Positions 10,305 through 26,288 of a stretch of DNA of 64,000 nt are shown one piece after another. The position numbers and the translations under genes are program-made. This DNA comes from Candidatus Zixiibacteriota bacterium (GTDB taxonomy: Bacteria; Zixibacteria; MSB-5A5; GN15; FEB-12): assembly GCA_020348905.1 (NCBI GenBank), contig CP070756.1, forward strand, positions 1,554,311 through 1,618,310, read 5' to 3'. The notes beneath the pieces are model-generated. The model searched no databases. It was not told the DNA's origin and saw nothing but the letters and a program-made list of their open reading frames with translations. The number at the start of each line of letters is the position of its first letter. Positions within the stretch are counted from its first letter, which is position 1.

Positions 10305-10305
10305 C

Positions 10306-13300
10306 ATGCGTCGCTGGCTTAAGATAATAGCGATTACTATCCTTACCCTGGTACTTCTGATAGGCGGAGCGTATCTGTACCTGTTTCACCTGGGCGGCAT
10401 AGAAACCGTTATCAACGCCAAGATATCCGGTCTTGTCGAACAGCGTTATCGCCTTGACGTCAAAATAGGAAGGGTCAAGGGGAGTTTTCTGTCTGATCTG
10501 GTAGTCGAAAACGTCGTCGTCTACTATGACGACCCTACCCGACGCTACCAGATACTTACCGTGCCCCGGATATCGGCGTCTTACGCACTGGCCAACATCT
10601 GGGAGGAGCGGTTCATTTTCGACTATCTGTTTGTCGACTCGGCCGAGATCGTCATGCTGCAGGATACCACGGGCGAGTGGGTTATTCCTGATTTCACGCC
10701 CAAGCGAGAGCCCGATGATACCGCCGCCACCAGGCTGCCGTCGTTTTCGGTCGGCAACCTGGGTCTGCGCGATCTGAGCATAAGGTTGGTGAAGCCCGAT
10801 GACACGGTGAGTTTCGATGATATTTTTGTGTCGCTGGCTTTTAAGGGCGAAGACAACACTTATTCGGTTGATGTTGAGCAATTTGAGTTTACCTCCAACA
10901 GGCAGAAGCTTCAGTTGAACGCGGCCGGCGGGAAGGTCACGCTCGCCGATAACCGGCTTCTGTTTCAGGATGTTGCTCTTGTTTCCGGGGATGTCCGGAT
11001 GAAATTGAGCGGCAATATAGACCTGGGTGGCCCGCCGGCAGGCATTGTATCGTTTGCCGCCGACAATATGGATCTTGCTGATGTTACGGCTTATGTCGGT
11101 CCGCGTCTGAAGGGGGTCGTTGATGTCAACGGTACGGTTAATTTCACCGGCAGCGCTTTGAGCGGCACCGTCGATATCGGCGGTGACTTCATGATGGCCA
11201 GTCTGCAGAATCTTTTCGTGGATTTTTCGTACGAGAACGGTTTTTTGTACTTCGACACGCTCTACGGCACGATTCTGGAGAACTGCGCCGTCGACGGAGG
11301 TGGTTACGTGGACTTCACCGAACGCCCGGAAACCTATATGTTAGAAGCGGACATCAAGGGTTTCAATCTGAACACTCTCGTGGGCGGCACTTTCGAGTCG
11401 GACCTCAACGGCAATATTATCATGTACGGCGAGTCATTTCGCAATGCTGACCTGGCTTTAGACCTGCACGCCGAATTGTACGAGTCGTCGTTCGATGAGT
11501 ATCCGATTCATCGGGGTTTCGGCGATGTTCTGATTACGACCGACTCGCTCATATTTCTCGATTCGTTTCGCGTCAATTACTACGAGAATCTGTTTTATGC
11601 CTCAGGCAAGATCGACTACGGTGAGGGCATCGACCTGGATATTGCCATCGATCTGCCCAACCTTGACCGATACCGGGGCAAGCTGTTTATCGATCAGCCG
11701 GGGGGCCGCGGCCGGGCGCGGGCAACCCTGACCGGCCAGACATCGGACCCCGATCTCAGAGGATATTTCACATCCGATTCGATATGGATCTACGGTTTGT
11801 ACAGTGATAGCATGTACGCTACGGTCGAGATTGACCGGTTCCTCAGCCGCAAGCTTGGTACGGTTGAGGTCGATTTCTTTGATGGTACCGTTTATGAGAC
11901 TCCTTACGACACCGGGTACGCTCTACTGCGAGTGGATTCCAACCTGGTGTTTTTTGACACGGCGCGCATAGCCAATCCTTTCACCAGCCTGGTCGTAGCC
12001 GGTGACTACGATTACGAAGCGATACCTGGACTGTTAACCGTAGACAGTCTTAGCCTGGATTTGTTCGGGCAAGACTTCTACAACCGTTCAAAAATCGTGG
12101 TCGAGGTGGATTCGCTCGGGTTCCAGTTCACGCAGGCGGCCATCGGTAACAACGGAGCCGGCCTGACGGTGCGGGGCAGGGCCAATTACGATGAAACGAT
12201 GGACATGATGTTATCGGTGTCACACCTGCCGATCGAACCCTGGAAGAATTTGTTTGTGGAAAGCCTTTTGGTGACGGGATACCTGTCGGCGGAGGCATCG
12301 CTAACGGGCTCCTTTGCGGAGCCGCAGTTTATCATCAACGCTTTTCTGGATTCGCTCGAGTACGAAGGTTTGCTCCTGGGTGATATCGCCACGAGCGTGA
12401 CCTACGATAACCGTCTTTTGAATATCGAGAATTTCCAATTGCTGTCCGAGTACGGTGATTACCGGGCCGACGGCTCTTTCTATGTGGACCTGGCGTTCAC
12501 GGCCGACTCGCTGGAGCGATTTCCCGATTTGCCCATGGAGATACGAATCGCCGCGGTCGACAGCCGCTTCGACCTGGTCAGCCTGTTGCAGCCGTCGGTG
12601 GAGGACCTCACAGGCGACTTTTTCGCTGATTTCGTTCTCTCCGGGACGCCGCTCGACCCACACCTTGAGGGTGAGGCCTTCATGATCAACCCGCGACTGA
12701 AGTATTTCGACCTCGAGGAAAGACTGTTCGGTGATTCAATCTCGGTGACCATGGAGAACAATCGGATTATTATCGATACGCTCGAGGCGTACTATGCGAA
12801 AGACACGACCAACCTATCCGAGCGAGTATCGGTGTTTGCGAGGGGTACTATCACGGTGATGTCACTCGATCGGTTCTACTACGATCTTGATGTGCGCGTA
12901 CCGGAGAAGTTTCCTTTCAGGTATGAACTTGATGACATTTCCGGTGAATTCGAAGGAAATTTACGCGTCGAGGGGGACTCGCCGCCGCGGGTTGTCGGCG
13001 ATCTGGAGATGAGCAGCATGCGGTACCTGGTCAATTTTGCCGAGCCGAATGAACTGTCGCCGGTGATCAAAGCGTTTGAGGGGGACAACCTGTGGGATCT
13101 GGAGGTCGACTTCAGCATTCCATCCAACTACTGGATCAAGAATGAAGATATCGATGCCGAGTTCGCCGGCGAGGTGACGATGCTGCGCAACGCCGGGGTG
13201 TATAGCTTTGTCGGTCAGATGGAGGTGCTGCGCGGTCGGGGCTTCCTGTTTGATAAGATCTTCCAACTCGAACCGGGAGGCCTGGTGACCTTTGAAGGAG

Positions 13301-13854
13301 GTGAGACTTTCAACCCGCTGCTGGAAATTGAAGCCAACACTTACATCGCCGGTAGTCGTGGGACGGACGAAGAAGACCGCAATATTGAACAGCTGCGCCT
13401 GGGTATCCTGATAACCGGTACGCTTGAAGAGCCGGAGATAAATGTCACCGAGGATTCCGATGTCGGGTCGCGCGAGGATATCTTGCCGTTGATTGTAGCC
13501 AACCAGTACGCCGGGGAGGGTGGAACCGCCACGACCAGCCTGGAGACGAGAGTAGCCAGCCTGGTATCGACCCAGTTGTCTCAGATCGGTTCGCGTCAGC
13601 TGGGCCGGCTGGGTGTTGAGACTTTCGAACTCGACCCCGGTTACTCCGGCGAGTTTGATCCGCTGGAAACCAGGGTTACACTGGGCCGGTACTGGACGCC
13701 ACACTTTTACACTTATGGCAGATCTTCGCTTTCGGGACAAAGCCGTCAGGAAGTCGGGTTTGAATACCGGTTCAATAAGTCGGTCATTCTGGAGGGACTT
13801 CGTGACGAGGATGAGCTGTACCACCTTAACCTCAAACTCAACTGGGAATTCTAA
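10306..13854 (+). CDS. tamB: Translocation and assembly module protein TamB (AsmA-like, DUF490 C-terminus)
   Basis: 1182 aa with an N-terminal anchor MRRWLKIIAITILTLVLLIGGAYLYLF, a long beta-rich body and a C-terminus ...GRYWTPHFYTYGRS...GFEYRFNKSVILEG...LNLKLNWEF. Start at the ATG at 10306, just after the previous stop. Confidence 0.8.
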   Translation: MRRWLKIIAITILTLVLLIGGAYLYLFHLGGIETVINAKISGLVEQRYRLDVKIGRVKGSFLSDLVVENVVVYYDDPTRRYQILTVPRISASYALANIWEERFIFDYLFVDSAEIVMLQDTTGEWVIPDFTPKREPDDTAATRLPSFSVGNLGLRDLSIRLVKPDDTVSFDDIFVSLAFKGEDNTYSVDVEQFEFTSNRQKLQLNAAGGKVTLADNRLLFQDVALVSGDVRMKLSGNIDLGGPPAGIVSFAADNMDLADVTAYVGPRLKGVVDVNGTVNFTGSALSGTVDIGGDFMMASLQNLFVDFSYENGFLYFDTLYGTILENCAVDGGGYVDFTERPETYMLEADIKGFNLNTLVGGTFESDLNGNIIMYGESFRNADLALDLHAELYESSFDEYPIHRGFGDVLITTDSLIFLDSFRVNYYENLFYASGKIDYGEGIDLDIAIDLPNLDRYRGKLFIDQPGGRGRARATLTGQTSDPDLRGYFTSDSIWIYGLYSDSMYATVEIDRFLSRKLGTVEVDFFDGTVYETPYDTGYALLRVDSNLVFFDTARIANPFTSLVVAGDYDYEAIPGLLTVDSLSLDLFGQDFYNRSKIVVEVDSLGFQFTQAAIGNNGAGLTVRGRANYDETMDMMLSVSHLPIEPWKNLFVESLLVTGYLSAEASLTGSFAEPQFIINAFLDSLEYEGLLLGDIATSVTYDNRLLNIENFQLLSEYGDYRADGSFYVDLAFTADSLERFPDLPMEIRIAAVDSRFDLVSLLQPSVEDLTGDFFADFVLSGTPLDPHLEGEAFMINPRLKYFDLEERLFGDSISVTMENNRIIIDTLEAYYAKDTTNLSERVSVFARGTITVMSLDRFYYDLDVRVPEKFPFRYELDDISGEFEGNLRVEGDSPPRVVGDLEMSSMRYLVNFAEPNELSPVIKAFEGDNLWDLEVDFSIPSNYWIKNEDIDAEFAGEVTMLRNAGVYSFVGQMEVLRGRGFLFDKIFQLEPGGLVTFEGGETFNPLLEIEANTYIAGSRGTDEEDRNIEQLRLGILITGTLEEPEINVTEDSDVGSREDILPLIVANQYAGEGGTATTSLETRVASLVSTQLSQIGSRQLGRLGVETFELDPGYSGEFDPLETRVTLGRYWTPHFYTYGRSSLSGQSRQEVGFEYRFNKSVILEGLRDEDELYHLNLKLNWEF

Positions 13855-15771
13855 GTGCTGAGAAAGACGCTGCTGCTTTTTGCCTTTTCATCGCTTTTAT
13901 CCGTGGCCTGGGGCCAGACCATCGACCGGGGCACCCTGCGCTGGATGCGTGACCGACCCATCATTGATTCGATTGTCATTGAAGGCAACCAGGCTATTTC
14001 GGATTCGCGGATTCGCTCGCGGATGTACTCCAAGGTGCGGACATTCTTCGATATGCTCAAAGGGGAGAGGCGGAGCCGGCTGCAGCGCGAAACCTACGAC
14101 CGCGATACCCTCGAGATAAAGTACCTGTATCTGACCAACGGCTACCTGGGTGTAAGGGTCAGTGAGTCGTTCGAGGTTCTTCCGGTGGATTCTACCGCCC
14201 TGATAAAAATCGCCATCGACGAAGGCCGGCAGTATTTTTACGGCGACAAGGCGGTTGAGGGAGATTTTCATCCGGGCTTTGCGATACGTTTTGAAAAGAT
14301 TTATCGAAGACTGAAGACGGGCCAGCCGGTGAACCCATTGGCTCTGAGACAAGTCGCTTTCGATATGAAAACGTCACTTGCCAACAACGGCTACCCTTAT
14401 GCCAGTGTTACTTTCGAATTCGACACGGTTATATCGCCTCCTGTTACACCCATCGCTTTCACCGTTGTTACTGATTCGGTGGTGCATTTCGGCGACGTTT
14501 TGATTCAAGGGACCGCGAATTATCCCGAGTTTGTCGCCCGCCGGGAACTGAAGATCAAGCCGGGTGACCTTTACCGGCGGCAGGCTATCGTTGATTCCCA
14601 GAGGCGGCTGTTCGAGTCCGGGTACTTCAGTTACCTCCAGCTGGAGAGGATGGAGACCAACGGTGACCGCCTGAATCCCGATTTCCGTCTCAAGGTCCGC
14701 GAGAGACGTCCTAAATTCATTTCGGTCAAGACCGGTGCCGGTCAGTCGGAACTGAAAGACCTGATTTGGGATTTTTCGTTTGGTGCCGGCAAGCGCAATT
14801 TCATCGGCTCGCGGAGGGTGAGCCTCACTTCCGACTACTCATTTTCACTCGGTGAGGAGTCCCGGCTAATCACCCATCGCTATCGGCTCCGATATACCGA
14901 GCCATGGTTTTTGGGTTTCAGGATGCCGCTTACGCTGACCGGCGAGTATGAGCCGCCGATTAAATCAACACTTCAAGATTTTACTATAACATCTTGGGGT
15001 GTATCAGCATCTACTATTAAATGGTTTGGCGACAAGGTCAAGACCACCACCGGCGTGGAGTACAACGAGGTCAAGATATCGGATGTTCCTCCCGAGCTGG
15101 AGCAGGAGTTGAAGGAGGCGGAGGGAATATCGGCCCGGCGCAAGATTTACACCGTCTACCGGCGCGACAGCCGCGACAATATCTTCATACCGAGACGCGG
15201 CTCGCTCAGCGACATGTCGGTCGAGTTTTTCGGAGGGTTCTTAGGAGGCGACGACGACTTCTACAAGATCGAGGCGAGTTGGGGGCGGTATCAGACAGTC
15301 TGGCCGGGGTGGATTTCGGCCACGCGGCTGAAGGGGGGGTACGTTACCGAATTCGGCGATTCCGAGGTCGTTCCCAAAGATGAGCTTCTGTATCTGGGCG
15401 GTGCCAACACCATAAGGGGTTTCAAAGAGAATACGCTCGGACCGCTTCGTGAGGATGGCTCGGCTGAAGGTGCCCGGATTACCCTGATTTTCAACCAGGA
15501 GTTCCGGTGGAAGACGATTCAGGTTTTGAAGGCGATTCCCTGGCGCGTTTTTGAAGAATTGCCACTGTGGCAATCGGTCTTCCTTGATGTTGGTAACGGT
15601 TTTCGTAATGATACAGAGATAGCGATTGACAACCTGGCTGTCAGCTATGGCACCGGTTTTCAGATTGTCTCACCGGCCGGACCGATACGTATCGACTATG
15701 CCCGGCGCGTCAAGACGGAGAAATATGACTTTGACAGCCGATGGCACTTCACTATATTATATGCCTTTTGA
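13855..15771 (+). CDS. tamA: Omp85-family outer-membrane protein with POTRA repeats, TamA-like
   Basis: Signal peptide, POTRA-like repeats (IDSIVIEGNQAISDSRI, GDVLIQGTANYPE) and a C-terminal barrel with GGANTIRGF and terminal ...FTILYAF. The GTG start abuts the tamB stop. Confidence 0.75.
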   Translation: MLRKTLLLFAFSSLLSVAWGQTIDRGTLRWMRDRPIIDSIVIEGNQAISDSRIRSRMYSKVRTFFDMLKGERRSRLQRETYDRDTLEIKYLYLTNGYLGVRVSESFEVLPVDSTALIKIAIDEGRQYFYGDKAVEGDFHPGFAIRFEKIYRRLKTGQPVNPLALRQVAFDMKTSLANNGYPYASVTFEFDTVISPPVTPIAFTVVTDSVVHFGDVLIQGTANYPEFVARRELKIKPGDLYRRQAIVDSQRRLFESGYFSYLQLERMETNGDRLNPDFRLKVRERRPKFISVKTGAGQSELKDLIWDFSFGAGKRNFIGSRRVSLTSDYSFSLGEESRLITHRYRLRYTEPWFLGFRMPLTLTGEYEPPIKSTLQDFTITSWGVSASTIKWFGDKVKTTTGVEYNEVKISDVPPELEQELKEAEGISARRKIYTVYRRDSRDNIFIPRRGSLSDMSVEFFGGFLGGDDDFYKIEASWGRYQTVWPGWISATRLKGGYVTEFGDSEVVPKDELLYLGGANTIRGFKENTLGPLREDGSAEGARITLIFNQEFRWKTIQVLKAIPWRVFEELPLWQSVFLDVGNGFRNDTEIAIDNLAVSYGTGFQIVSPAGPIRIDYARRVKTEKYDFDSRWHFTILYAF

Positions 15772-15857
15772 CGAGCTGTTGGCGGCCGGAACAACCGGCC
15801 TGACGACAACGTTTTAAGTTGATATAGCATTATTAGACAGGTTATTGGGGAATTCAA

Positions 15858-17027
15858 ATGGAATCGATATATCTCGACCACAACGCCACCACGCCGGTTG
15901 ATCCTGAGGTCGTTCAGGCCATGCTGCCTTACCTGTCGGGAAACTTTGGCAATGCCAGTTCGGTTCACGCCTTTGGCCGCGACGGCAAAGTAGCCCTCGA
16001 AAACGCCCGCGAGATGATCGCATCGGTCATAAACTGCGAGCCTTCGGAGCTGTATTTCACTTCGGGCGGAACCGAATCAGACAATATCGCCGTCCTTGGC
16101 ACTGCCCATCGGTTCAAGGGCAGGAAGGACCATATCATAGTGGGCGCCGCCGAGCATCACGCTGTTTTGGAACCGGCCGAGTACCTGGCTCACAGCGAAG
16201 ATTTCAAGTTGGACCTGTTGCCGGTTGATGGCGAGGGTTTCTCGTCGCCCGAGCAGTTGAAAGAGCTTGTCACCGATCGGACGGCCCTGGTCTCGGTGAT
16301 GCACGCCAATAATGAAACCGGTACAGTTCAGGATATAGGCGGACTGGTCGAAGTGACGCACGCCAAGAATTGCCTGTTCCACACCGATGCCGTTCAGTCC
16401 ACGGGTAAGATCAAGGTAGATGTGAAGCGCATGGGTGTCGATATGGCTACCATAACGGCGCACAAGATTTATGGCCCCAAGGGAATCGGAGGCCTGTATG
16501 TCCGGGCAGGGGTGAAGGTGTCGCCACTTTTTTACGGCGGAGCACATGAGAAGAAACGCCGCCCCGGCACGGAAAACGTCGCCGGCGCGGTCGGATTTGC
16601 CAAAGCGCTTGAAATAGCCATGCGCCGCCAGGAGGATGATTTCCGTAACATGAGCGAGCTGGCCGATTACTTCATCGACAAAGTCATCGGAAGCATACCT
16701 GATGTCATGCTGAACGGGCCGAGGAAGAACCGCATTCCCCAGACAATGAATATGTCGTTTAACGGTGTCGAAGGGGAGTCGGTTGTTCTGGCCCTGGATC
16801 TCAAGGGGATTGCCTGTTCGTCGGGATCGGCCTGTACCTCCGGGGCCACCGAACCCTCGCACGTGCTGAAGGCGATGGGTGCCGAGGCCGTATCGGCCCA
16901 GGGGGCCATTCGTTTCTCTCTCGGTCGCTCGACTACAAGGGATCAGCTCGATTATGTTATCTCCGTTTTGCCCGAGGTAATCGGCAAACTGCGCGAGATG
17001 TCGCCTTTTTACAGTCAGCAAAAGTAA
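15858..17027 (+). CDS. nifS: Cysteine desulfurase (NifS/IscS type, class V aminotransferase)
   Basis: IYLDHNATTP, TSGGTESDN, HTDAVQ, ITAHKIYGPKG (PLP Lys) and the active-site loop SSGSACTSG. Confidence 0.9.
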   Translation: MESIYLDHNATTPVDPEVVQAMLPYLSGNFGNASSVHAFGRDGKVALENAREMIASVINCEPSELYFTSGGTESDNIAVLGTAHRFKGRKDHIIVGAAEHHAVLEPAEYLAHSEDFKLDLLPVDGEGFSSPEQLKELVTDRTALVSVMHANNETGTVQDIGGLVEVTHAKNCLFHTDAVQSTGKIKVDVKRMGVDMATITAHKIYGPKGIGGLYVRAGVKVSPLFYGGAHEKKRRPGTENVAGAVGFAKALEIAMRRQEDDFRNMSELADYFIDKVIGSIPDVMLNGPRKNRIPQTMNMSFNGVEGESVVLALDLKGIACSSGSACTSGATEPSHVLKAMGAEAVSAQGAIRFSLGRSTTRDQLDYVISVLPEVIGKLREMSPFYSQQK

Positions 17028-17053
17028 CATACCGGTCACACAGGGCGAAAGGT

Positions 17054-17077
17054 AAGGGTCGCTCGGCGACCCTTTTG
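17054..17077 (+). terminator. Hairpin plus short T-run between nifS and mnmA (weak terminator or attenuator)
   Basis: AAGGGTCGC-tcg-GCGACCCTT followed by TTGTCT. Confidence 0.4.
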
Positions 17078-17091
17078 TCTGGATAGTAACA

Positions 17092-18177
17092 ATGATCCAA
17101 AAAGTTCTGGTAGCCATGTCGGGGGGGGTGGACTCATCGGTGGCGGCGTTGCTGCTTCGCGAGATGGGTTACGATGTGGTCGGGGCCCACATGAAGCTGT
17201 GGGATTATGTTGATGTGGGTGGTGATATCCACAAAGACGGCCGCTGCTGCACGCTGGACTCCATCAATGACTGCCGGATGATCTGCAACGCGATAAGTGC
17301 TCCCTTCTACGTCCTGAACCTGTCACAGCAGTTCAAAGAGAAAGTGATCGAGGATTTCGTGGCCGAGTATCGCGCCGGCCGTACGCCTAACCCCTGCGTG
17401 AGATGCAACATCGATGTCAAGTGGAGCGAGTTCCTTCGCAAGGCCAATGAGGTCGGATGCGACTATATTGCCACCGGCCATTATGCCATAGTCGAACAGG
17501 AGGAAGACGGCCGCTGCCAGATTCGCAAGGGGACCGACAAGAGCCGTGACCAGTCGTACGTGCTGTGGGGGATATCTCAGGAGGCGCTGTCAAAGACGAT
17601 TATGCCGCTGGGGGCGATGCTGAAATCGGAAGTACGGTCGCTGGCCAAGCGGTACGGTTTGCGCACGGCCGAGAAAACGGAATCGCGCGAGATATGTTTT
17701 GTGGCCGACGACGATTACCACCGGTTTCTGACTGAATACGAGGCCAAGGAGGGCCGGACGTATCAGCCGGGGGATATTGTTCATCAGGACGGGCGCGTTC
17801 TGGGTCAGCACAAGGGGACGCCTTTTTACACAATCGGTCAGCGCAAGGGGCTTGGCATAGCCCATCCTACGCCGCTATACGTTCAGAAGATTGATGTGGC
17901 CAACAATCGTATCATTGTCGGTGATGATGAGGCCCTCTTCGAGCAGGAATGTGAAGTGGAAAACGTTAACTGGGTGAGCATATCGCCGCCGGAGCTTCCG
18001 GAGCAGGCCGAGGTGAAGATTAGGTACCTGCATCCGGCGGCATCGGCTACGGTAACGCCCTTGACCGACCGGACGGTCCACGTTATATTTGACGAAAAGC
18101 AGCGCGCTATCACGCCCGGCCAATCGGCTGTTTTTTACCGCGGCGACCTTCTTCTCGGCGGCGGGGTTATAGCTTAG
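17092..18177 (+). CDS. mnmA: tRNA 2-thiouridine(34) synthase MnmA
   Basis: PP-loop VLVAMSGGVDSSVAA, NPCVRCN, ATGHYA and DQSYVLW motifs along the full length. Confidence 0.95.
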   Translation: MIQKVLVAMSGGVDSSVAALLLREMGYDVVGAHMKLWDYVDVGGDIHKDGRCCTLDSINDCRMICNAISAPFYVLNLSQQFKEKVIEDFVAEYRAGRTPNPCVRCNIDVKWSEFLRKANEVGCDYIATGHYAIVEQEEDGRCQIRKGTDKSRDQSYVLWGISQEALSKTIMPLGAMLKSEVRSLAKRYGLRTAEKTESREICFVADDDYHRFLTEYEAKEGRTYQPGDIVHQDGRVLGQHKGTPFYTIGQRKGLGIAHPTPLYVQKIDVANNRIIVGDDEALFEQECEVENVNWVSISPPELPEQAEVKIRYLHPAASATVTPLTDRTVHVIFDEKQRAITPGQSAVFYRGDLLLGGGVIA

Positions 18178-18221
18178 TGCGAAGCGTGATCAGGCTCCTT
18201 CCAGCCCCCGATTTTAACTTC

Positions 18222-18250
18222 TTGACAAAATGCGGTTCGGCTGATATTTT
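18222..18250 (+). promoter_or_regulatory. Candidate sigma-70 promoter for the first radical-SAM gene
   Basis: TTGACA, 17 nt, TATTTT, located about 95 nt upstream of the ATG at 18347. Confidence 0.35.
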
Positions 18251-18346
18251 GGGAAAGTAATTGCTTCCGCGCTCGAAGTGGGCGTTTGTAGTTGCAGCAC
18301 AATCCTCACCATATATTACACCAAACCCTCATGCGAAAAGAGCCGG

Positions 18347-19672
18347 ATGAAGGCGTCACGGTTTAATAAAGTCGTTGAAATTGAAAGCGGTAACAGGCTC
18401 CTCTTTAACGCCGACACGGGCGCCATCGCGGAACTTCCCCCCGAATCCTACAGCAACGTCAAAAAATTGCTGTTTGCACCGGCAAAGGCGGAGACGGCCG
18501 AGGACCGTAAGCTGGTCGACCAGTTGCTTTACGGAGGGTTTCTGAGCGAGCCCGGCTTTGATGAAATCGCTCATCTGAAGGTGGAAAACGGGCGGCACCG
18601 GTTCGGTAACCCGCTCGGTTTCATTGGAATAGCGCCTACATTCGAGTGCAACCTGACCTGCGGGGGGTGCTCGTCACGTAACCAAAAGGGGCGCATGACC
18701 AAACTGGTGGAAAAGGCAGCGCTCAAGTTTGTGGCCAGGCAGATAAAGAAGTGTGACGAGCTTCAGGTCTGCTGGTTTGGAGGTGAGCCCCTGCTTGGTA
18801 TTGAAACCATCGAACGGCTTCACCGCGGTATTGCCGAGTCAGCCGCCAAATACGATACGACGCTGCAGGGAAGTACTATCATTACCAACGGGTACCTGCT
18901 CGACGCCAAGATGGCCAAAAGGCTGAAAGAGGCCGGCGTGACCGGTGCTCAGGTAACGCTGGAAGGGCCTCCGGAAATCCATGACTCGCGACGGAAACTT
19001 CCCGACGGTACGGGCACCTTTGATACCGTCCTGGGCAATATTGCCGCAGTGGCCGAGGAGCTTGATATTGTTGTCAGGATAAGTGTCCTGGAGAACGACC
19101 CCGAAGCGGCGGTTGAGGTAGTGGAGATTCTGGAAAAGCAGGGCCTTCTTTCAAAAATTGGGTTCTATTTCGGTCCAGCTGAATCGGGATGTGATGCGTG
19201 CGACAGTGTTGTAGGCCAGTGCCGGCTGGATGACAAAGAGGTTGAGGTGCAGTTGGGGATTTACCGTCGCCTGGCCGAAAGCGTTTCCAACCGGATGGAT
19301 TATCCGTATCTGATTCCCTTCCGGCGATGCGGATTCGATTCGAGCCGTTCATTTTTAGTAGCGCCGACCGGATATGTGTTCAAGTGCTGGGAACAGGCTT
19401 CGGCGCGAGTCGACGACTCGGTGTGTAATGTGTTCGGTGATGATCCGGAATCGTTCCAGCAGTCGAACCAGTGGCGGTTCACAGCATTCGACCCGTTTGA
19501 CAGTTCGGAGTGTGTTAAGTGTGACATTCTGCCCGTTTGTATGGGTGGGTGTCCAATCGCGATAGAAGACCGTAGCAATATGATCAAATCTGGGTGCAGT
19601 CCCTGGAGGAAAAATTTGGAGGAGCTGCTTGTGCTAAGGTACCTTTATGAATTAAGAGAGGAGGTGATCTGA
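18347..19672 (+). CDS. Radical SAM/SPASM peptide-maturase-like enzyme with an N-terminal RRE-like extension
   Basis: CNLTCGGC (CxxxCxxC) about 115 aa from the start. Complete SPASM pattern C-x13-G-x4-C ... CVKCDILPVCMGGC ... C. The N-terminus RFNKVVEIESGNRLLFNADTGAIAEL is typical of peptide-binding maturases. Start at the internal ATG; the ORF track begins at the GTG at 18278. Confidence 0.85.
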   Translation: MKASRFNKVVEIESGNRLLFNADTGAIAELPPESYSNVKKLLFAPAKAETAEDRKLVDQLLYGGFLSEPGFDEIAHLKVENGRHRFGNPLGFIGIAPTFECNLTCGGCSSRNQKGRMTKLVEKAALKFVARQIKKCDELQVCWFGGEPLLGIETIERLHRGIAESAAKYDTTLQGSTIITNGYLLDAKMAKRLKEAGVTGAQVTLEGPPEIHDSRRKLPDGTGTFDTVLGNIAAVAEELDIVVRISVLENDPEAAVEVVEILEKQGLLSKIGFYFGPAESGCDACDSVVGQCRLDDKEVEVQLGIYRRLAESVSNRMDYPYLIPFRRCGFDSSRSFLVAPTGYVFKCWEQASARVDDSVCNVFGDDPESFQQSNQWRFTAFDPFDSSECVKCDILPVCMGGCPIAIEDRSNMIKSGCSPWRKNLEELLVLRYLYELREEVI

Positions 19673-19791
19673 TGCTGTTTATCGTTCTGCCTGATCGAAG
19701 CACTGCAGGATCCGGACCAGGATGTGCCGTCAAGACGGGACCTTGTCCCAAGAAAGTGATAAGCATTCTTCCGCCGCCGGCAATTTGGTAG
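19672..19791 (+). CDS. Unannotated 39-aa ORF, candidate RiPP precursor (MLFIVLPDRSTAGSGPGCAVKTGPCPKKVISILPPPAIW)
   Basis: The ATG overlaps the upstream TGA (TGATG). A strong SD, GAGGAGGTGA, ends 4 nt upstream of the ATG. Two Cys sit in a Gly/Pro-rich core. Too short for the supplied ORF track. Confidence 0.35.
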   Translation: MLFIVLPDRSTAGSGPGCAVKTGPCPKKVISILPPPAIW

Positions 19792-19809
19792 CCGGGTGTA
19801 ACGTTGGCG

Positions 19810-19840
19810 CAGATTGGTCAGCGATGCTGCTTCCAATCTG
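19810..19840 (+). other. Stem-loop downstream of the small ORF
   Basis: CAGATTGG-15 nt-CCAATCTG, a perfect 8-bp stem with no T-tract. Confidence 0.3.
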
Positions 19841-20019
19841 AAGAAAACAATACACGACAAACAGAGGAGGGGAAATCTTTGTTTCTGTCATCGGCCCCGA
19901 AGCAAGCAGGAAAAAGCCCTGTCCGCTACCAAGCGGAGGACTGATTTACCTGGTCTGGCCGCCGGTGATTAGGTAAGACTTCGACGAGTATACAACCATA
20001 AGGGGAGACGCGGTTAATG

Positions 20020-20047
20020 TTGACAGACCGTGTTTCCCCTGTATTTT
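20020..20047 (+). promoter_or_regulatory. Candidate sigma-70 promoter for the second radical-SAM gene
   Basis: TTGACA, 16 nt, TATTTT. The same hexamers occur at 18222. Confidence 0.3.
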
Positions 20048-20065
20048 GACTATCATCAGACTGTT

Positions 20066-21094
20066 ATGACTACTTCCGGACAGAGAAAATATAGCTCCAT
20101 CGGCTGGGGCATAACCCGACGATGCAACCTGTCGTGTCCGCACTGCTACACTTCAGCCGCCAAAACATCCACGGGGGAGCTTACCACCGAGGAGTGTCGC
20201 GAGATTATTGACTTGATGCCCGGTCTGGGAGCAGAGAATATCGGCTGGACCGGGGGGGAACCTCTGCTCAGAAAAGATCTGGAAGAGCTTATGAGATACG
20301 CCCAGCGCTACGGAATCACGTCGAGCATTACGACCAATGGCATTCCGCTCACGAAAAGACGGGTGGCAAAGCTGGCGGAGGTTGGACTGAGGGCGCTGCA
20401 GATCAGTCTCGACGGTTCGACGCCGGAGAAAAACCGTAATATTCGCAGGGCCCGCCTGGCGGACTTCGAATTAGTTATCAACGGAGCAAAGATGTGTTTG
20501 GAAGCCGGTCTGCCGGTGACCCTGGCCATGATCATCTCTCGCGATACCATCGACGATGTTATGGACTATGTTGCTATGGCTCGAAACCTGGGTGTCAACT
20601 CAATAAGATTCTGCGGTTTTGTTCCTCACGGTGATGCCGAGGACGGCGAGGCCCGGCACAGGCTGGAGTTTTCCGACCATCACCGCGAACTGTATGCTCT
20701 TGTGGAGAGACTGGTGGACGTAGAGTCTCCAACAATAGTCTTTGACGCGGGCCATGGGCCGGTGCCTCCCGGTTACAGTTGTCACCAGTGCAATGCAGGG
20801 ACGGAGACATTCTATATATCGGATAATGGCGACGTCTACCCATGTACCGGACTACTGTACGATAGGTTTAAGGTTGGTAACCTGCGACTACGTCCGCTTC
20901 TGGAACTTATTGACGACCCCAAGATGTCGGAGATGGCCAGATACGATCACAGCCAGATTCATGGTCATTGCCGCGACTGTCAGTACTTCCGTGTTTGCCG
21001 CGGGGCCTGCCGCGGAGCTACTTACGCCCACACCGGCGACTTGAACGCGTCATTCCCGGTGTGTTTGTTTCGGGCCTCGCTACTGGAGACTTAA
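20066..21094 (+). CDS. Radical SAM/SPASM domain protein (PqqE/NirJ/AhbD-like, no N-terminal RRE)
   Basis: CNLSCPHC near the N-terminus, GGEPLL, and a complete SPASM pattern C-x12-G-x4-C ... CRDCQYFRVCRGAC ... C. Start set at the ATG at 20066. Confidence 0.85.
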   Translation: MTTSGQRKYSSIGWGITRRCNLSCPHCYTSAAKTSTGELTTEECREIIDLMPGLGAENIGWTGGEPLLRKDLEELMRYAQRYGITSSITTNGIPLTKRRVAKLAEVGLRALQISLDGSTPEKNRNIRRARLADFELVINGAKMCLEAGLPVTLAMIISRDTIDDVMDYVAMARNLGVNSIRFCGFVPHGDAEDGEARHRLEFSDHHRELYALVERLVDVESPTIVFDAGHGPVPPGYSCHQCNAGTETFYISDNGDVYPCTGLLYDRFKVGNLRLRPLLELIDDPKMSEMARYDHSQIHGHCRDCQYFRVCRGACRGATYAHTGDLNASFPVCLFRASLLET

Positions 21095-21131
21095 GGCGTT
21101 ACCGACCAGCCGCCAAAATCCAAAAATATCA

Positions 21132-21159
21132 TTGACCTGCCATAATCTTGCGCTAATAT
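21132..21159 (+). promoter_or_regulatory. Candidate sigma-70 promoter
   Basis: TTGACC, 16 nt, TAATAT, located 43 nt upstream of the ATG at 21202. Confidence 0.4.
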
Positions 21160-21201
21160 TGCACATCACCACGCTGCCAACAATAATCAAGGAGAGATAA
21201 A

Positions 21202-21879
21202 ATGCCGCAGGTCAAATTTCTCGGTCACTCCTGTGTGACCATTACCGAGGGAGAACACAAGCTCATCATTGATCCCTTCCTGTCGGATAATCCCAAGGCA
21301 CCGGTCAAGGCATCTGATGTCGATGTCAACTACGTACTGCTGACTCACGGGCATGGAGATCATGTCGGGGACGCTATTGCTATCGCCAAACGCAACAAGG
21401 CCACGGTAATCGCCAATTTCGAGCTGGCCAACCTTTGCGCAGGGGAAGGTGCGCAGATTCATCCGATGCATATCGGCGGTTCGCACAAATTCGATTTCGG
21501 GCGCGTCAAACTCACTATCGCGCATCACGGTGGCGGTTACGGCGCCGATGCGTCGCGTTACACGGGACCGCCCTGTGGTTTTTTGATCACAATCGGCGGG
21601 GCCACGATCTACCACTCCGGTGACACCGGCCTGTTTTATGACATGAAGCTGATTGGTGAGATGAACCGTATTGACCTGGCCTTTCTACCTATCGGTGACA
21701 ATTTCACCATGGGGGTTGACGATGCCGTCAAGGCGGTCGAATTTTTGTCCCCAGCCAAGGTGGTGCCGTTCCACTACGATACCTGGGACATCATCGCCGA
21801 GGATCCCAAGAACTTCGCCGACCGGGTAAAAGGTGCCGAAGTGTTTATACTCAAGCCCGGAGAAGGCCTGACCCTGTAA
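21202..21879 (+). CDS. UPF0173-type metal-dependent hydrolase (MBL fold)
   Basis: KFLGHSCVTI...IDPFLSDNP...LLTHGHGDHVGD...HSGDTG, typical of the UPF0173/YtkL family. GGAGAG SD. Confidence 0.8.
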   Translation: MPQVKFLGHSCVTITEGEHKLIIDPFLSDNPKAPVKASDVDVNYVLLTHGHGDHVGDAIAIAKRNKATVIANFELANLCAGEGAQIHPMHIGGSHKFDFGRVKLTIAHHGGGYGADASRYTGPPCGFLITIGGATIYHSGDTGLFYDMKLIGEMNRIDLAFLPIGDNFTMGVDDAVKAVEFLSPAKVVPFHYDTWDIIAEDPKNFADRVKGAEVFILKPGEGLTL

Positions 21880-21909
21880 AGCTCAATCTTCGTAATTCGT
21901 TACTGACGA

Positions 21910-21936
21910 GGGGGGCACTGCCCCCTTTGTGATTTT
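21910..21936 (+). terminator. Rho-independent terminator
   Basis: GGGGGGC-act-GCCCCCT followed by TTGTGATTTT. Confidence 0.45.
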
Positions 21937-22003
21937 AATTGCTTCCCACCGGTTTTCTTCTTAGAATTCTAAGCCAAGTGGCTTTTGGAGGATATAAGTA
22001 TAT

Positions 22004-24835
22004 ATGAAGAAGTTTTTGAAGATTCTGGGCTGGGTGGCCGGTGCTGTCATCGTCCTGTTGATACTCGCGATCGCTGGTTTATGGTTGTTCTTTCCGATTG
22101 AGAAGGCTAAAGAGATGGCGGTGGAGCGCGGCAGCGCCCAGCTGGGACGAACGATAACAGTCGAAGATGCGGCCATTTCGTTCTGGGGCGGTCTGGGGGT
22201 CAGACTTGGCAATGTGGCGGTAGGCAATCCTGCTGCCATGGAAGACGGCGATTTCCTTAAGGCCGAAGATGTCGATGTCAAGCTGCAGATTCTGCCGCTG
22301 CTTTCAGGAAACTACAAAATCGACCGGCTGGTTATTAACCGTCCCGAGATAGCTATGCTCAAGCGTGCCGATGGCACCAACAACTACACGTTCGAGGCCG
22401 TCGAAAAAAAAGCACCGCCCGAGCTGGCTGAGAAAGTTGCGCCCGAGGCCAAGGCAGCGGCTTTTGCCGTAACCTTTGACGAGCTTGTAATCAATGACGG
22501 CATGCTAAGTTTTGTCGACGATAGTTCCGGCATGAGTTTCCGCCTTAACAATCTTGACCTGTCTACTTCATTAACAAGCCCGCGCGCGAATTACTATCGT
22601 TCATCGGGAAGTATAGAAGTCGATTCGGTGGCGGTGTCGCTGGATGTTCCACTTCCACCGCTATCGGTGAAGCTCGATTACAATCTCGACTACGACCCTG
22701 CTACCAGGCAAATTACGTTCGAAGAAACCCGGCTGGAACTCAACCGGGTAAAATTCGCTCTTAAGGGGGAAGCGCATGATCCAACCGGGCAGCTAAAGAG
22801 CAAGGTGTCGATTAAATCCGAGAAGATCTCGGTGGCTGATTTATTCGCTCTGCTTCCGCCGGAGAAACTGGAAGCCACCCGGGATTTCGAGATAGACGGC
22901 GACTTTACGCTGGACCTTGATGTTGAGTATGACCCCGACCATCCAGATACCCTTACCTATTACGGCACGGCGCTGATAACCTCGATGAATCTCTCTCACC
23001 GGGAGGTGCCGGGCCAATTCGAGTTCAGCCGCGCCCTGCTGGACTTCAAGACCGATAACCTGAGATTCAATATCGAGGATGCCTACTTCGACGGAAATCC
23101 CGTCAAGGGGCACCTGGTCGTGGACAACTTCGATGATCCCACCGCGAACGGCGAACTGGCCGGCAAGTTCAACCTGGCCTATCTGCAGCCGTTCCTCCCG
23201 GCCGAGGGTCAGCACACCATTGCCGGCGGCAGCGAATTCGACATAAAGCTCTCCGGTAAGCCGAGAGACTTCGGCTCCATGAGTTTCTCCGGCAGCCTCA
23301 AGGTATCCGGCGGCAGCTATAACTCGGCGGCCCTTTTCGAGCCGGTCGAATCTTTTGATCTCGACGTTTATTTCGACAACCGCCTCACCCATGTCAGGAA
23401 GCTCACCGGGCGAATGAAGTCGGGCGACCTGTCTTTCGAGGGTCGCTTTAACGATCTGGTTCCGTACTTCATGGCGGATTCGGTCACCCGTCGCATGATC
23501 GCACCCACCATTGACGGTTCGGTGTCAGGGAATGTCGATCTGGCGGTGGTAAACATGTTTTTGCCGCCTACGGGAAATCCCGAGCTCAAGGGTGACCTGA
23601 GCACAAACATAAAGATGACAGGGGTATTGACCGACTACGAACGGCTTCGGCCGAGCGGAAAGCTGACTATTCGGAACGCCTCTTATACCGATTCGCTGTT
23701 ACCGGAGCCGGTGACCCATTTCGAGGCGGAGATGACTATCGCGCCGGATACCATCACGGTCAATAACCTTACGGCGAAGTTCGTATCAAGTGATGCCTCA
23801 TTCTCGGGCAAGCTGGTCGACCCCTTTCCGTACCTTCTGCCGATCGAAGGAGTGGACCGCAGCCAGGTCAACAAGCCGTTATTTCTGTTCCAGCTGTCCT
23901 CGAACCGGTTCGATGCGGATAAACTGTTTCCGGAGGCCGTGCCCGGCTCCGGGGAAAATCGTGCTACCGTGTCGGTGGACTCGATCTCGCCCTTCATCCT
24001 GCCTGACATAGACGGACAGGGGACGTTTGAGGTGGACACCCTTATCTACAGCCAGGTTGAGTTTACATCGCTTCAGGGGAAGATAAAGGTTTACGATCGC
24101 AAGATCGAATGCTACGACGCTACCGGGAAGGTGTACACCGGTGACGTTTCGGGCAAGACCACGATTGACCTGCAGGATTTCGAGAACCCCCGGTACGTTG
24201 GCGAGTTCAAGGCCAGCAATGTCGAAGCGGACGACTTTGTCAGCCGGTTCACGAAATTCGGCGGCTACCTGTTCGGCAAGGTCAATATGGAGGGCAATTA
24301 CAATGCCAGCGGCTGGGAGGCGCAGGATTTTTTGAATTCGCTGACCATGAACTCGGCGTCGTCGATGCAGCAGGGGAAGGTAGTTACGTCGGGCGTCGTT
24401 TTCTCCGCCATAAGCAGCCTGGCATCGAAGGCCGGCGAGACTTTTGAGAAGGAACAGTCCCTGCGCGATCTGAGTACAAACGTGGTTGTCAAGGATGGCA
24501 AAGTATCAGTTGACAAACTCCAGACCGGGTTGGGTAAGGTGGGTGACGTTCAGCTGGACGGTTTCTACGCTTTTACGGGAGACATAAGTTACAGCGGCAC
24601 TATCCTGTTGTCGAAAGAGTGGTCCGAGAAGCTTGTTTCGCAGAAGGGATTGCTGGGTAACCTGGCCGGTTTGTTGTCGGATAAGAGTGTCGATCGCATC
24701 AAGTTGCCGATTGCCTTCGGCGGTACGATCGATCAACCGTCGTTTGATGTCGACTATACAGCGCTGGCGAAGAACCTGGGCGAGAACCTCAAGGATGAAG
24801 CCGGGAATCTGCTGGACAAGTTGAAGAAAAAATAG
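22004..24835 (+). CDS. AsmA-family outer-membrane biogenesis protein
   Basis: 943 aa with an N-terminal anchor KILGWVAGAVIVLLILAIAGLWLFF, then a ...TVEDAAISFWGGLGVRLGNVAVGNP start typical of AsmA, and a long repetitive beta-rich body. Confidence 0.8.
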   Translation: MKKFLKILGWVAGAVIVLLILAIAGLWLFFPIEKAKEMAVERGSAQLGRTITVEDAAISFWGGLGVRLGNVAVGNPAAMEDGDFLKAEDVDVKLQILPLLSGNYKIDRLVINRPEIAMLKRADGTNNYTFEAVEKKAPPELAEKVAPEAKAAAFAVTFDELVINDGMLSFVDDSSGMSFRLNNLDLSTSLTSPRANYYRSSGSIEVDSVAVSLDVPLPPLSVKLDYNLDYDPATRQITFEETRLELNRVKFALKGEAHDPTGQLKSKVSIKSEKISVADLFALLPPEKLEATRDFEIDGDFTLDLDVEYDPDHPDTLTYYGTALITSMNLSHREVPGQFEFSRALLDFKTDNLRFNIEDAYFDGNPVKGHLVVDNFDDPTANGELAGKFNLAYLQPFLPAEGQHTIAGGSEFDIKLSGKPRDFGSMSFSGSLKVSGGSYNSAALFEPVESFDLDVYFDNRLTHVRKLTGRMKSGDLSFEGRFNDLVPYFMADSVTRRMIAPTIDGSVSGNVDLAVVNMFLPPTGNPELKGDLSTNIKMTGVLTDYERLRPSGKLTIRNASYTDSLLPEPVTHFEAEMTIAPDTITVNNLTAKFVSSDASFSGKLVDPFPYLLPIEGVDRSQVNKPLFLFQLSSNRFDADKLFPEAVPGSGENRATVSVDSISPFILPDIDGQGTFEVDTLIYSQVEFTSLQGKIKVYDRKIECYDATGKVYTGDVSGKTTIDLQDFENPRYVGEFKASNVEADDFVSRFTKFGGYLFGKVNMEGNYNASGWEAQDFLNSLTMNSASSMQQGKVVTSGVVFSAISSLASKAGETFEKEQSLRDLSTNVVVKDGKVSVDKLQTGLGKVGDVQLDGFYAFTGDISYSGTILLSKEWSEKLVSQKGLLGNLAGLLSDKSVDRIKLPIAFGGTIDQPSFDVDYTALAKNLGENLKDEAGNLLDKLKKK

Positions 24836-24886
24836 AACCGAAGCAATTCCGCAACCGGGCGCGCCTCAAGAGACTGGTGATAACAA

Positions 24887-25573
24887 ATGACGTGGCTGGC
24901 TGAGCAGTTTGGAATTCTTTCGAAAATCTTCTACTACCTGATTCAGGTGGTTCACTGGACTGTCCTGATTTCGGTTCTGGCTTACCTGCTGGCCCTTATC
25001 TGCGGCCTGGTCTTCGGCATCGCCCGCATCTCGCGAAATCGTTTCATCAGGAGCATAGCCGGGGCATACATAAATGTTCTCAGGGGAGTGCCCCTGCTGG
25101 TACTTATCTTCTTCTTTTATTTCGGTCTTGGCAAGTTTGTCAATCTTGACCGGTTTGTGGCCGGTGTGCTGGCAGTGGGGGTATGCTATGGCGCGTACAT
25201 GGCCGAAATTTTCCGCTCGGGAATTGAAGCTATCGATTACGGTCAGCACGAAGCAGCCATGTCGCTCGGAATGACACGATGGCAGACTCTTCGACACATA
25301 ATTCTGCCGCAGTCGTTCCGGATAGTCGTGGCGCCGGGGGCAAATGAGTTTATTGCCTGCCTGAAGGATTCCTCGCTGGTGTCGATTATCGGACTGCGAG
25401 AGCTTACCCGGGCCGGACGGGAATACGCCAACCAGTATTTTCTCGACTTTCACACCTGGTTGATGGTGGGCATAATATACCTGATTATGACCCTGACGCT
25501 CACCCGGCTGGTAAAGCGCCTGGAGAAGCGATTCGCGATTCATGGTTATGGAGTCACCCGCCATGATAATTGA
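24887..25573 (+). CDS. Polar amino acid ABC transporter permease (HisM/GlnP family)
   Basis: EAA-loop region [43 protein letters not shown]. Confidence 0.9.
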
Positions 25574-26288
25574 CATCAAGAACATTGTCTGCCGTTTTGG
25601 TGAAATCGTCGCCCTCGACGATATCAGTTTGAGCGTTGACCATGGCGAAGTAGTGGTTATCCTGGGACCGTCGGGATCAGGGAAGTCAACCCTGCTGCGA
25701 TGTCTGAACGCACTTGAAGAGATTCAATCCGGTGAGATTAATGTTGATGGCTTCCTGATTGATAGAAATCACCGCCAGATTCACCAGATCAGGCTCGAGG
25801 TGGGTATGGTTTTTCAACAGTTCAACCTCTTTCCGCATCTGACGGTGATCGAAAACGTCAACCTGGCGCAACGGGTGGTTCGAAAGCGCTCCCGGACCGA
25901 GGCTGCCCGCGTTTCCACGGAACTGTTGAACAAGGTAGAACTGGCGGACAAGACCGAGGCGTTTCCCGGTCAGTTGTCCGGTGGGCAGAAGCAGCGTGTA
26001 GCTATTGCCAGAGCGCTGGCTATGAATCCGAAGATAATGTTGTTTGATGAAGTGACTTCGGCCCTCGACCCGGAGATGATCGGTGAAGTGCTCGAAGTTA
26101 TGAAGCAGCTGGCGGCCGAAGGCATGACGATGCTTATTGTCACGCACGAGATCGGTTTTGCTCGCGAAGTAGCCGACCGGGTCATTTTCATCGACGAAGG
26201 CAAGATCGTCGAACAGGCCGCGCCCCGGCAGTTTTTCACTAACCCGACCAATCAGCGAACGAAGGATTTCCTGGCCCACGTTTTGTAG
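25563..26288 (+). CDS. Polar amino acid ABC transporter ATP-binding protein (GlnQ-like)
   Basis: Walker [11 protein letters not shown]-loop, signature [15 protein letters not shown], Walker [13 protein letters not shown] and H-loop VTHE. The ATG at 25563 overlaps the permease stop. Confidence 0.9.

Follow-up and report, generated by a model that had tools for sequence, protein, structure and literature searches.

Among the peptides modified by radical S-adenosylmethionine (SAM) enzymes with a SPASM domain are the sactipeptides, in which a cysteine sulfur is linked by a thioether to an alpha-carbon, and the ranthipeptides, in which the link is to a beta- or gamma-carbon. For such peptides, made by the ribosome and modified post-translationally (RiPPs), background is available on recognition of the leader by a RiPP recognition element (RRE), on the auxiliary clusters of the SPASM domain and on alpha- versus beta/gamma-thioethers (PMC10114670, PMC10288494). 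In some RiPP systems, such as those for thuricin CD (TrnC/TrnD), ruminococcin C (RumMC1/2) and SynChlorMet (ScmE/ScmF), two radical SAM/SPASM enzymes are encoded with the precursor or precursors (PMC12093266, PMC8188230). The locus described here lies in a 64,000-nucleotide stretch, called the window, of contig CP070756.1 (positions 1,554,311 to 1,618,310, forward strand) from Candidatus Zixiibacteriota. It contains a 39-amino-acid open reading frame (ORF) at 19672-19791, between two genes for radical SAM/SPASM enzymes, rSAM1 and rSAM2. From sequence comparison, this ORF very likely encodes a genuine RiPP precursor, as the middle gene of a self-contained rSAM1-peptide-rSAM2 module. A literature search found no publication on the Zixibacterial peptide family or on the chemistry of Clo7bot, the family whose maturase is the best match to rSAM1.

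The peptide gene and its relatives in other loci

The initial annotation of the window had proposed the ORF (forward strand) as a candidate precursor, translationally coupled to the upstream enzyme gene. A reading of the sequence and of the ORF list confirms that the TGA stop codon of rSAM1 (19670-19672) shares its A with the ATG of the peptide gene (19672-19674), giving a TGATG overlap. The Shine-Dalgarno (SD) sequence, GAGGAGGTGA, lies on the same strand at 19658-19667, within the last rSAM1 codons, and likewise ends 4 nt (TCTG) before the ATG as had been stated; 7 nt separate its GGAGG core from the start codon. By motif count, the window holds 2 copies of AGGAGGTGA versus 0.44 expected by chance, the second of which, at 13296, falls within a coding region. 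The product, MLFIVLPDRSTAGSGPGCAVKTGPCPKKVISILPPPAIW, has 39 residues with two Cys, three Lys and a C-terminal Trp, also in agreement with the first description, and is laid out as a leader, MLFIVLP, followed by Cys18, Cys25 and a tail, C25-PKKVIS-ILPPPAIW. The exact sequence is missing from a collection of 15 billion proteins that does contain the adjoining rSAM1 (P0001, from the same NCBI record), so the ORF is indeed unannotated. As 121 ORFs of at least 30 amino acids are listed in the 13 kb around it, a length of 39 codons is not beyond chance, and the significance of the ORF therefore rests on comparison with other genomes rather than on the window.

For this comparison, rSAM1 homologues were collected, their flanking DNA was fetched, and the small ORFs beside each enzyme were compared. 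A small ORF of the same family adjoins the rSAM1 homologue, on the same strand, in 17 other loci (L002-L011 and L084-L088 among them) with enzymes 42-86% identical to that of the window, and this range of identities excludes the possibility that the loci are misassembled copies of one sequence. The family ORF is present in every close locus with enough flanking sequence, with the sole exception of L012, whose sequence ends 66 nt after rSAM2. The initial annotation had named frameshifts or stops in homologous loci as what would speak against a gene; instead, the frame, start context, leader, Cys and ILPP are kept.

The family peptides are 28-50 amino acids long and are recognized by a leader, M-x-[FY]-I-[IV]-x-P, by a nearly invariant Cys and by a hydrophobic ILPP(W) tail. 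In the family alignment, with the consensus MKFIxxPxxxxxxPCPxxCxxLxxILPPx, M1 and I32 are invariant and C25 is at least 90% conserved. The cores have one or two Cys and up to six, one member having a single Cys, and a PCPC motif is common. Many members end in PPW, and about 9 of 23 have a Trp as the last residue or no more than two residues from it; no Lys column is conserved, and neither is Tyr. Examples are the peptides from L084 (MLFIVPPIKNGPGPKCPKKNVCEF..., which stops at the contig end; 86% enzyme identity), L085 (MIFIVPPVNSGSGPKCPPKVVPCDLLCSTLCSLKCAQVYYILPPLIWQ; 57%), L002 (MLFIVPPIKNGDGPKCPNLDPCPLYVKPCPKNAIYILPPIYM; 52%) and L003 (MLFIIEPTSGKGPNGPNCPSDC...IMLPIE; 45%), and those from L087, L088 and L008 (MKFLEKPQDSVKKPCPCLNRLFLILPPW and similar). 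Codon differences in the conserved leader and tail are mostly synonymous, such as CTG/CTC, TTT/TTC, ATC/ATA/ATT and CCT/CCA/CCC/CCG in the leader. Judged from these sequences, the peptide core evolves much faster than the enzyme. Between L084 (1869-1982) and the window (19672-19791), the cores are very different (DRSTAGSGPGCAVKTGPCP... vs IKNGPGPKCPKKNVCEFLCSTLSPCVTKC...) despite 86% identity of the maturases, and both leaders read MLFIV, with synonymous differences between their codons.

Two caveats had been attached to the initial proposal: that an SD inside a coding sequence could be coincidental, and that many precursors lie upstream of their maturases. The start of the peptide gene overlaps the stop of the enzyme in 11 loci (as TGATG, TAGTG, ATGA or GTGA) and lies within 7 nt after it in three. 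Peptide copies are also found upstream of the enzyme (L006, L010 and L086), and tandem arrays of 3-5 divergent copies occur in L006, L010 and L087. The family therefore has precursors both downstream of the maturase, where they are coupled, and upstream of it, in tandem arrays, which settles the second caveat. An SD of the AGGAGGTGA type lies a few nt 5' of the start in almost all members shown, a few being degenerate, and the free-standing intergenic copies in L006, L010, L086 and L087 have the same SD. Because coupled and free-standing copies alike have it, the SD is a property of the peptide gene, which the C-terminal E-E-V codons of rSAM1 accommodate, and the first caveat is also resolved. 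Tandem divergent copies and a strongly variable core are natural-product-like behaviour.

The peptide can also be recovered by profile. A leave-one-out profile was made from 21 peptides of other loci, with the window peptide excluded, and was run against the 2,209 six-frame stop-to-stop segments of the window. It gives one significant match, at 19672-19779, starting from profile position 1 (E = 8e-5), and the next best has E = 1.4. A second copy in L085, also unseen by the profile, scores 34 bits. Among 16,515 small ORFs of all fetched loci, profile matches with E <= 1 number 52 on the enzyme strand and 2 on the opposite strand. A reverse search of 5.8 billion protein clusters finds only 18 small proteins, all of them unnamed or "hypothetical" and none with a Pfam domain. 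Two of these were looked up, and both lie in a cassette of radical SAM (442-448 aa), peptide overlapping its stop, and radical SAM/SPASM (346-356 aa), in contexts unrelated to the window (L090-L092). The precursor gene is thus found beside the enzyme in 17 other loci, and the cassette is found from the peptide in the reverse look-up. The conserved frame and motifs beside rSAM1 homologues, together with the unique profile match in the window, support the candidate precursor of the initial annotation.

Beside more distant rSAM1 homologues (L025, L026, L030, L041 and L042; L052 and L055) lie peptides of other precursor sub-families, in which the leader is the same and the cores differ. One has the tail ...KC...YP[LM]YG[IV]xP and a different second radical SAM enzyme of 365-377 aa; another, MTFLVEP...GPGGGC, occurs in tandem triplets.

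The two enzymes, the spacer and the genomic context

The first enzyme, rSAM1 (18347-19672, forward strand), has 441 aa and is assigned as a peptide maturase of the radical SAM/SPASM type, with an RRE-like domain at its N-terminus, by identity with P0001, by profiles and by an AlphaFold2 (AF2) model. It is 100% identical to P0001, a 441-aa NCBI protein of a metagenome-assembled genome of Candidatus Zixiibacteriota, and the family alignment and the NCBI annotation agree that its true start is the ATG at 18347, not the GTG at 18278. Pfam finds PF04055, and the SPASM domain matches TIGR04085 with 42 bits (cut-off 27). Both cysteine motifs are invariant in 29 homologues: the CX3CX2C of the radical SAM core (C101/C105/C108) and a complete seven-Cys SPASM motif, C328-x13-G-x4-C347, C389-x2-C392-x5-C398-x3-C402, C417. 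The Clo7bot maturase model TIGR04334 matches with 249.7 bits, residues 25-458 of the 464-aa ORF against 1-436 of the 440 model positions; given an equivalog cut-off of 600, rSAM1 is by this score a homologue and not an equivalog. Other full-length, sub-threshold matches are to TIGR04463 (207 bits) and CefB (174 bits), maturases of Cys-rich peptides, and the SCIFF maturase model TIGR03974 gives 59.5 bits (cut-off 425). A scan of a genome collection with rSAM1 returned only an unrelated archaeal radical SAM protein of 25% identity, which is uninformative on conservation.

The AF2 model of rSAM1 has a mean confidence (pLDDT) of 83 and predicts a beta-beta-beta-alpha-alpha-alpha domain at residues 7-86. 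Its strands (7-11, 17-21 and 26-30) and helices (32-43, 51-62 and 73-86) have pLDDT above 90, and this three-strand, three-helix domain has, as modelled, the topology of an RRE. A Pfam search found no sequence-profile match to PqqD in rSAM1, and the assignment rests on the fold. The best match among solved structures is CteB (5wgg), with a TM score of 0.69 over the whole length, a sequence E of 7.5e-11 and 17% identity. TigE, anSME and SuiB (sequence E 7.5e-4) come next, and EpeE is also among the structure matches.

Upstream of rSAM1, a consensus scan gives a candidate sigma-70-like promoter at 18222-18250 (forward strand; TTGACA-17-TATTTT, TG-extended, 10 of 12 matches), for which promoter function is suggested by the consensus match. 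The mechanically called rSAM1 ORF runs 23 codons further upstream, to the GTG (18278-18346, forward strand; MGVCSCSTILTIYYTKPSCEKSR), and this extension, 3' of the promoter-like site, probably belongs to the untranslated leader of the RNA.

The other conserved enzyme in the module, rSAM2 (20066-21094, forward strand), has 342 aa, belongs to the radical SAM/SPASM type and has no recognition domain at its N-terminus, as assigned by profiles, by PF04055 and PF13186 and by its solved relatives. An rSAM2 homologue lies directly 3' of the peptide gene or genes in 13 other loci. Its sub-threshold profile matches are AhbD, StsB, MftC and PqqE, the last two at 129-149 bits, and WgkB gives 120 bits (cut-off 650). 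The closest solved relatives, SkfB and PqqE, align from residue 15-16. ScmE and ScmF are weak profile matches for both rSAM1 and rSAM2.

The spacer between the peptide gene and rSAM2 holds, at 19863-19976 (forward strand), what translation, DNA alignment and BLASTP suggest is a relic of a second precursor copy. In its 5' part, which has an SD, AGAGGAGGGG, a TTG at 19879 opens a frame encoding MFLSSAPKQAGK. After a 1-nt frame change, the other frame reads KPCPLPSGGLIYLVWPPVIR to a TAA at 19974-19976. The frame changes between codon 7 (CCG, 19897-19899) and the KPCP codons (from 19914), for which the A5 run at 19911-19915 is one candidate site. Aligned as DNA, the relic and the second L085 copy are in register at both the TTG and the KPCP codons, with 35 nt between these two points in the window versus 36. 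The repaired peptide matches the L085 copy by BLASTP with 26.6 bits and 42% identity without gaps; its match to the family profile is weak (6-7 bits), and its leader lacks the F-I-V core. The relic is probably a decaying pseudogene, or it could be a homopolymer assembly error, in which case the intact second precursor would be MFLSSAPKQAGKKPCPLPSGGLIYLVWPPVIR. Two other explanations were set aside: the 21-aa TTG ORF at 19879-19944 fits better as the 5' half of a frameshifted second copy than as an independent small gene, and loss of a start codon in the other frame (TTT at 19878) fits the DNA alignment less well than a 1-nt frameshift.

Just 5' of rSAM2, 24 nt after the TAA of the relic and 200 nt past the stop of the 39-aa ORF, is a 15-bp, G+C-rich hairpin (20001-20040, forward strand; -27.5 kcal/mol, z = -4.6), followed by UGUAUUUUG. 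In 8 of 10 other loci, such as L002 (2605-2656), L003 (7504-7539), L086 (7576-7611) and L088 (7431-7463), the last precursor stop is followed at a distance of 0-30 nt by a hairpin of similar strength with an unrelated sequence. The hairpin is a candidate attenuator, terminator or 3'-end/mRNA stabilizer between the precursor gene or genes and rSAM2. A promoter-like match from the consensus scan (20020-20047) overlaps its loop and 3' arm. An Rfam search of 17900-21400 at E <= 1 found no RNA family, and the spacer is therefore not a known riboswitch or small RNA.

The gene order in the window is TamB, BamA, IscS, MnmA, rSAM1, small ORF, rSAM2, a metallo-beta-lactamase (MBL)-fold hydrolase, AsmA and an ABC transporter. 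The order from TamB to the ABC transporter (10237-26288 in the window; the whole of loci L003 and L086) is kept in three Zixibacteria genomes, with rSAM1 44-45% identical. The synteny of mnmA, module, MBL hydrolase and asmA is lost in other loci, where the same three-gene module stands in unrelated contexts. Therefore, the module appears to have moved as a unit among Zixibacteria, and the housekeeping neighbours are not part of the system. Accordingly, a functional link to the upstream iscS-mnmA was rejected, these genes being absent from cassettes in other contexts. The MBL-fold hydrolase (21202-21879) was also considered as a PqqB-like part of the module, but it matches the housekeeping family PRK00685 (294 bits, cut-off 144) and is likewise absent from cassettes in other contexts (L087, L088, L090 and L092). 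In L092 (1-3494), the cassette is directly preceded, on its own strand, by two ABC_membrane/ABC_tran exporter genes; exporters are missing from the window and from most other cassettes.

Elsewhere in the window, the AT skew is strongly negative at 45001-48000 (-0.25 to -0.30), over two long forward-strand ORFs of mostly hydrophobic residues. Because hydrophobic residues dominate the translations, the skew looks like ordinary membrane-protein codon composition, and it was dismissed as unrelated to the peptide module. From the translations, the ORFs are candidates for MurJ-like (44679-46256) and ComEC-like (46256-48532) proteins.

Proposed modification and alternative readings

The proposed route to a modified peptide would begin with coupled translation. 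The sequence signals allow ribosomes that end rSAM1 at the TGA (19670-19672) to start anew at the ATG overlapping this stop; that ATG is also served by a strong SD of its own. The short N-terminal leader, MLFIVLP, would then be bound by the RRE-like N-domain of rSAM1, such that the radical SAM core and the two auxiliary clusters of the SPASM domain could cross-link the conserved Cys25, and possibly also Cys18. The most likely product would be an intramolecular thioether whose acceptor is a carbon in the conserved C-terminal segment C-P-x-[KR]-x3-I-L-P-P, perhaps that of a residue within V29-I32. The second enzyme, rSAM2, which has no recognition domain of its own, may add a second modification to the same peptide, and the hairpin after the precursor gene or genes may set the ratio of peptide to rSAM2 expression or stabilize the peptide mRNA. 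By analogy, a Cys thioether stands at about an even chance; it is the most likely chemistry because the families nearest to rSAM1 are all ones that modify Cys-rich peptides and CteB is the structure nearest to it. The initial annotation had also thought Lys-Trp crosslinks compatible with the residues of the peptide. As the reaction that defines the family, such a crosslink finds no support, since only about 9 of 23 members have the terminal Trp, compared with at least 90% conservation of one Cys.

Several observations weigh against a thioether-bearing RiPP. There is no protease or exporter in or beside the module in the window, the peptide has no match in Pfam or NCBIfam by profile search, and its leave-one-out score, 20 bits, is modest. 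The window peptide has only two Cys, versus 4-8 in characterized or curated Cys-rich families. Wherever rSAM1 or rSAM2 matches a family whose chemistry is known, the score falls far below the curated cut-off, so the thioether is an extrapolation, and SPASM enzymes of similar fold, with TigE, SuiB and EpeE among the structure matches, form C-C bonds, cyclopropanes or epimers.

The peptide could also be a genuine substrate of some other reaction, such as a C-C or C-O cross-link in the aromatic/Ile/Pro/Trp tail, epimerization, or a rearrangement like those of pyrroloquinoline quinone (PQQ) or mycofactocin, with the Cys binding only an auxiliary cluster or a metal. The resemblance of rSAM2 to PqqE, MftC, AhbD and WgkB is about as great as that to sactisynthases, and the structural neighbours of rSAM1 include TigE, which forms a cyclopropane, and SuiB, which forms a Lys-Trp link. 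The hydrophobic tail with its invariant Ile is the most conserved part of the peptide, many members ending in PPW, and the common PCPC motif could bind a metal. On the other hand, rSAM1 has as its best relatives by sequence only maturases of Cys-rich peptides, CteB ranks first by structure, and it is one Cys that is at least 90% conserved, not Trp, Tyr or Lys. Another chemistry is thus a serious possibility that nonetheless falls short of an even chance.

It is improbable that the ORF encodes an unmodified conserved small protein, whether one that is hydrophobic or sits in the membrane, or an upstream peptide with a regulatory role whose translation would control rSAM2 together with the hairpin. 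The hydrophobic tail, the lack of a protease or exporter in the module and the strong hairpin between the peptide gene or genes and rSAM2 in most loci would fit such a role. Arrays of 3-5 divergent copies 5' of rSAM1, far from rSAM2 (L006 and L010), would not, and neither would the peptide-recognition fold on rSAM1 or a leader common to Clo7bot-type precursors; moreover, the hairpin follows the stop codon without overlap, and a conserved Cys would be superfluous in a regulatory peptide. That the ORF arose by chance, its SD a by-product of the C-terminal E-E-V codons of rSAM1, is very improbable indeed. The window has many ORFs of such length and the SD does lie within coding sequence, but 17 other loci preserve the frame and motifs, the substitution pattern is synonymous, free-standing copies are preceded by the same SD, the profile match in the window is unique, and the strand bias is 52:2.

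If a modified precursor is the correct reading, two "orphan" radical SAM/SPASM genes of an uncultivated phylum would become a defined system of enzyme, substrate and second enzyme. The peptide family, which appears new, undescribed and mainly Zixibacterial, would belong to a RiPP system of the radical SAM/SPASM kind in which the leader is Clo7bot-like, the core is new and there is a second enzyme. It is invisible to current annotation, given that no Pfam or NCBIfam model exists, and the window illustrates how such genes get missed, with a start codon overlapping a stop codon and an SD buried in coding sequence. Substrates of 28-50 amino acids are short enough for synthesis, and the very short leader and conserved tail are attractive for new radical peptide chemistry and for leader-guided engineering. 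Because the module is usually without a protease or exporter and, in one lineage, keeps a stable place among housekeeping genes, the role of the product may be physiological rather than antibiotic, and if so would be cofactor-like, metal-binding or signalling. Such a physiological role is debated for SCIFF. The family is also one more uncharacterized member among many radical SAM RiPPs, and the surprise to a specialist would be moderate.

Comparison with known systems

The closest described family is Clo7bot (TIGR04333 for the peptide, TIGR04334 for the maturase). TIGR04334 is the best family match of rSAM1, over its full length, multi-copy tandem precursors occur in both systems, and the leader M-x-[FY]-I-[IV]-x-P is common to both peptide sets, the window having MLFIVLP and the Clo7bot-type leader being M-[KR]-[YF]-I-x-x-P. 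An hhalign comparison of 23 peptides of the Zixibacterial type with 14 of the Clo7bot type gives 89% probability and E 2e-6, over columns 1-10. True Clo7bot peptides, with TIGR04333 scores of 48-60 bits (cut-off 31), adjoin more distant rSAM1 homologues among those fetched, whereas the window peptide and three close relatives have no TIGR04333 match even at E <= 10 in the same run in which the distant-locus peptides matched. The cores differ as well: the window peptide has two Cys (C18 and C25) and the family PCPxxC...ILPP, versus C-x2-C-x3-C-x3-C, with at least four regularly spaced Cys, in the Clo7bot type, and a Pro-rich hydrophobic ILPP(W) tail takes the place of the CxxC/Cx3C-rich core. 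Here, too, a second SPASM enzyme is a constant partner and exporters are usually absent. Given the failed TIGR04333 match, the rSAM1 score of 250 of 600 bits, the different core and the constant second SPASM enzyme, the family is regarded as a sister of Clo7bot and not as a member.

The SCIFF/thermocellin system provides the nearest structure, by sequence and by fold including the N-domain, in CteB, a thioether-forming radical SAM/SPASM maturase. It shares the minimal cassette of peptide and radical SAM enzyme or enzymes, without protease or exporter and conserved within one bacterial lineage. It differs in that rSAM1 is only 17% identical to CteB and scores below the TIGR03974 cut-off, in that SCIFF peptides have six Cys in about 45 residues, a pattern missing from the window peptide, and in that SCIFF systems use one enzyme and the rSAM1-peptide-rSAM2 module two. 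The two-enzyme systems for thuricin CD, ruminococcin C and SynChlorMet resemble the module in having two radical SAM/SPASM enzymes and one or more precursors. In the two-enzyme sactipeptide systems, however, both enzymes are paralogous RRE-bearing sactisynthases, whereas rSAM2 is short, RRE-less and nearest to AhbD, StsB, MftC and PqqE.

The cofactor pathways for PQQ (PqqA/PqqE with PqqD) and mycofactocin (MftA/MftC with MftB) are alike in using a short peptide with a conserved C-terminal motif and a SPASM enzyme, here rSAM2, without an exporter, and in keeping, within one lineage, a stable place in the chromosome amid housekeeping genes. The Glu/Tyr motif of PQQ and the terminal Val-Tyr motif of mycofactocin are absent, as are other pathway genes, and the scores are below cut-off; the hypervariable, multi-copy cores are also unlike a cofactor precursor. 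From the streptide-type Lys-Trp peptides (StrB/SuiB and WgkB), the family differs in having no conserved Lys and Trp at fixed spacing, and the SuiB and WgkB matches are weak.

It is possible, though on balance doubtful, that the module defines a new RiPP class largely confined to Zixibacteria, with a leader of about seven residues, a C-P-x-[KR]-x3-I-L-P-P-(W) tail, an RRE-bearing and then an RRE-less SPASM enzyme, and a chemistry that could differ from that of sacti- and ranthipeptides. In short, rSAM1 has the features of a radical SAM/SPASM RiPP maturase with an RRE in the general sense, namely the Cys motifs, the N-terminal fold and an adjoining precursor that varies with it.

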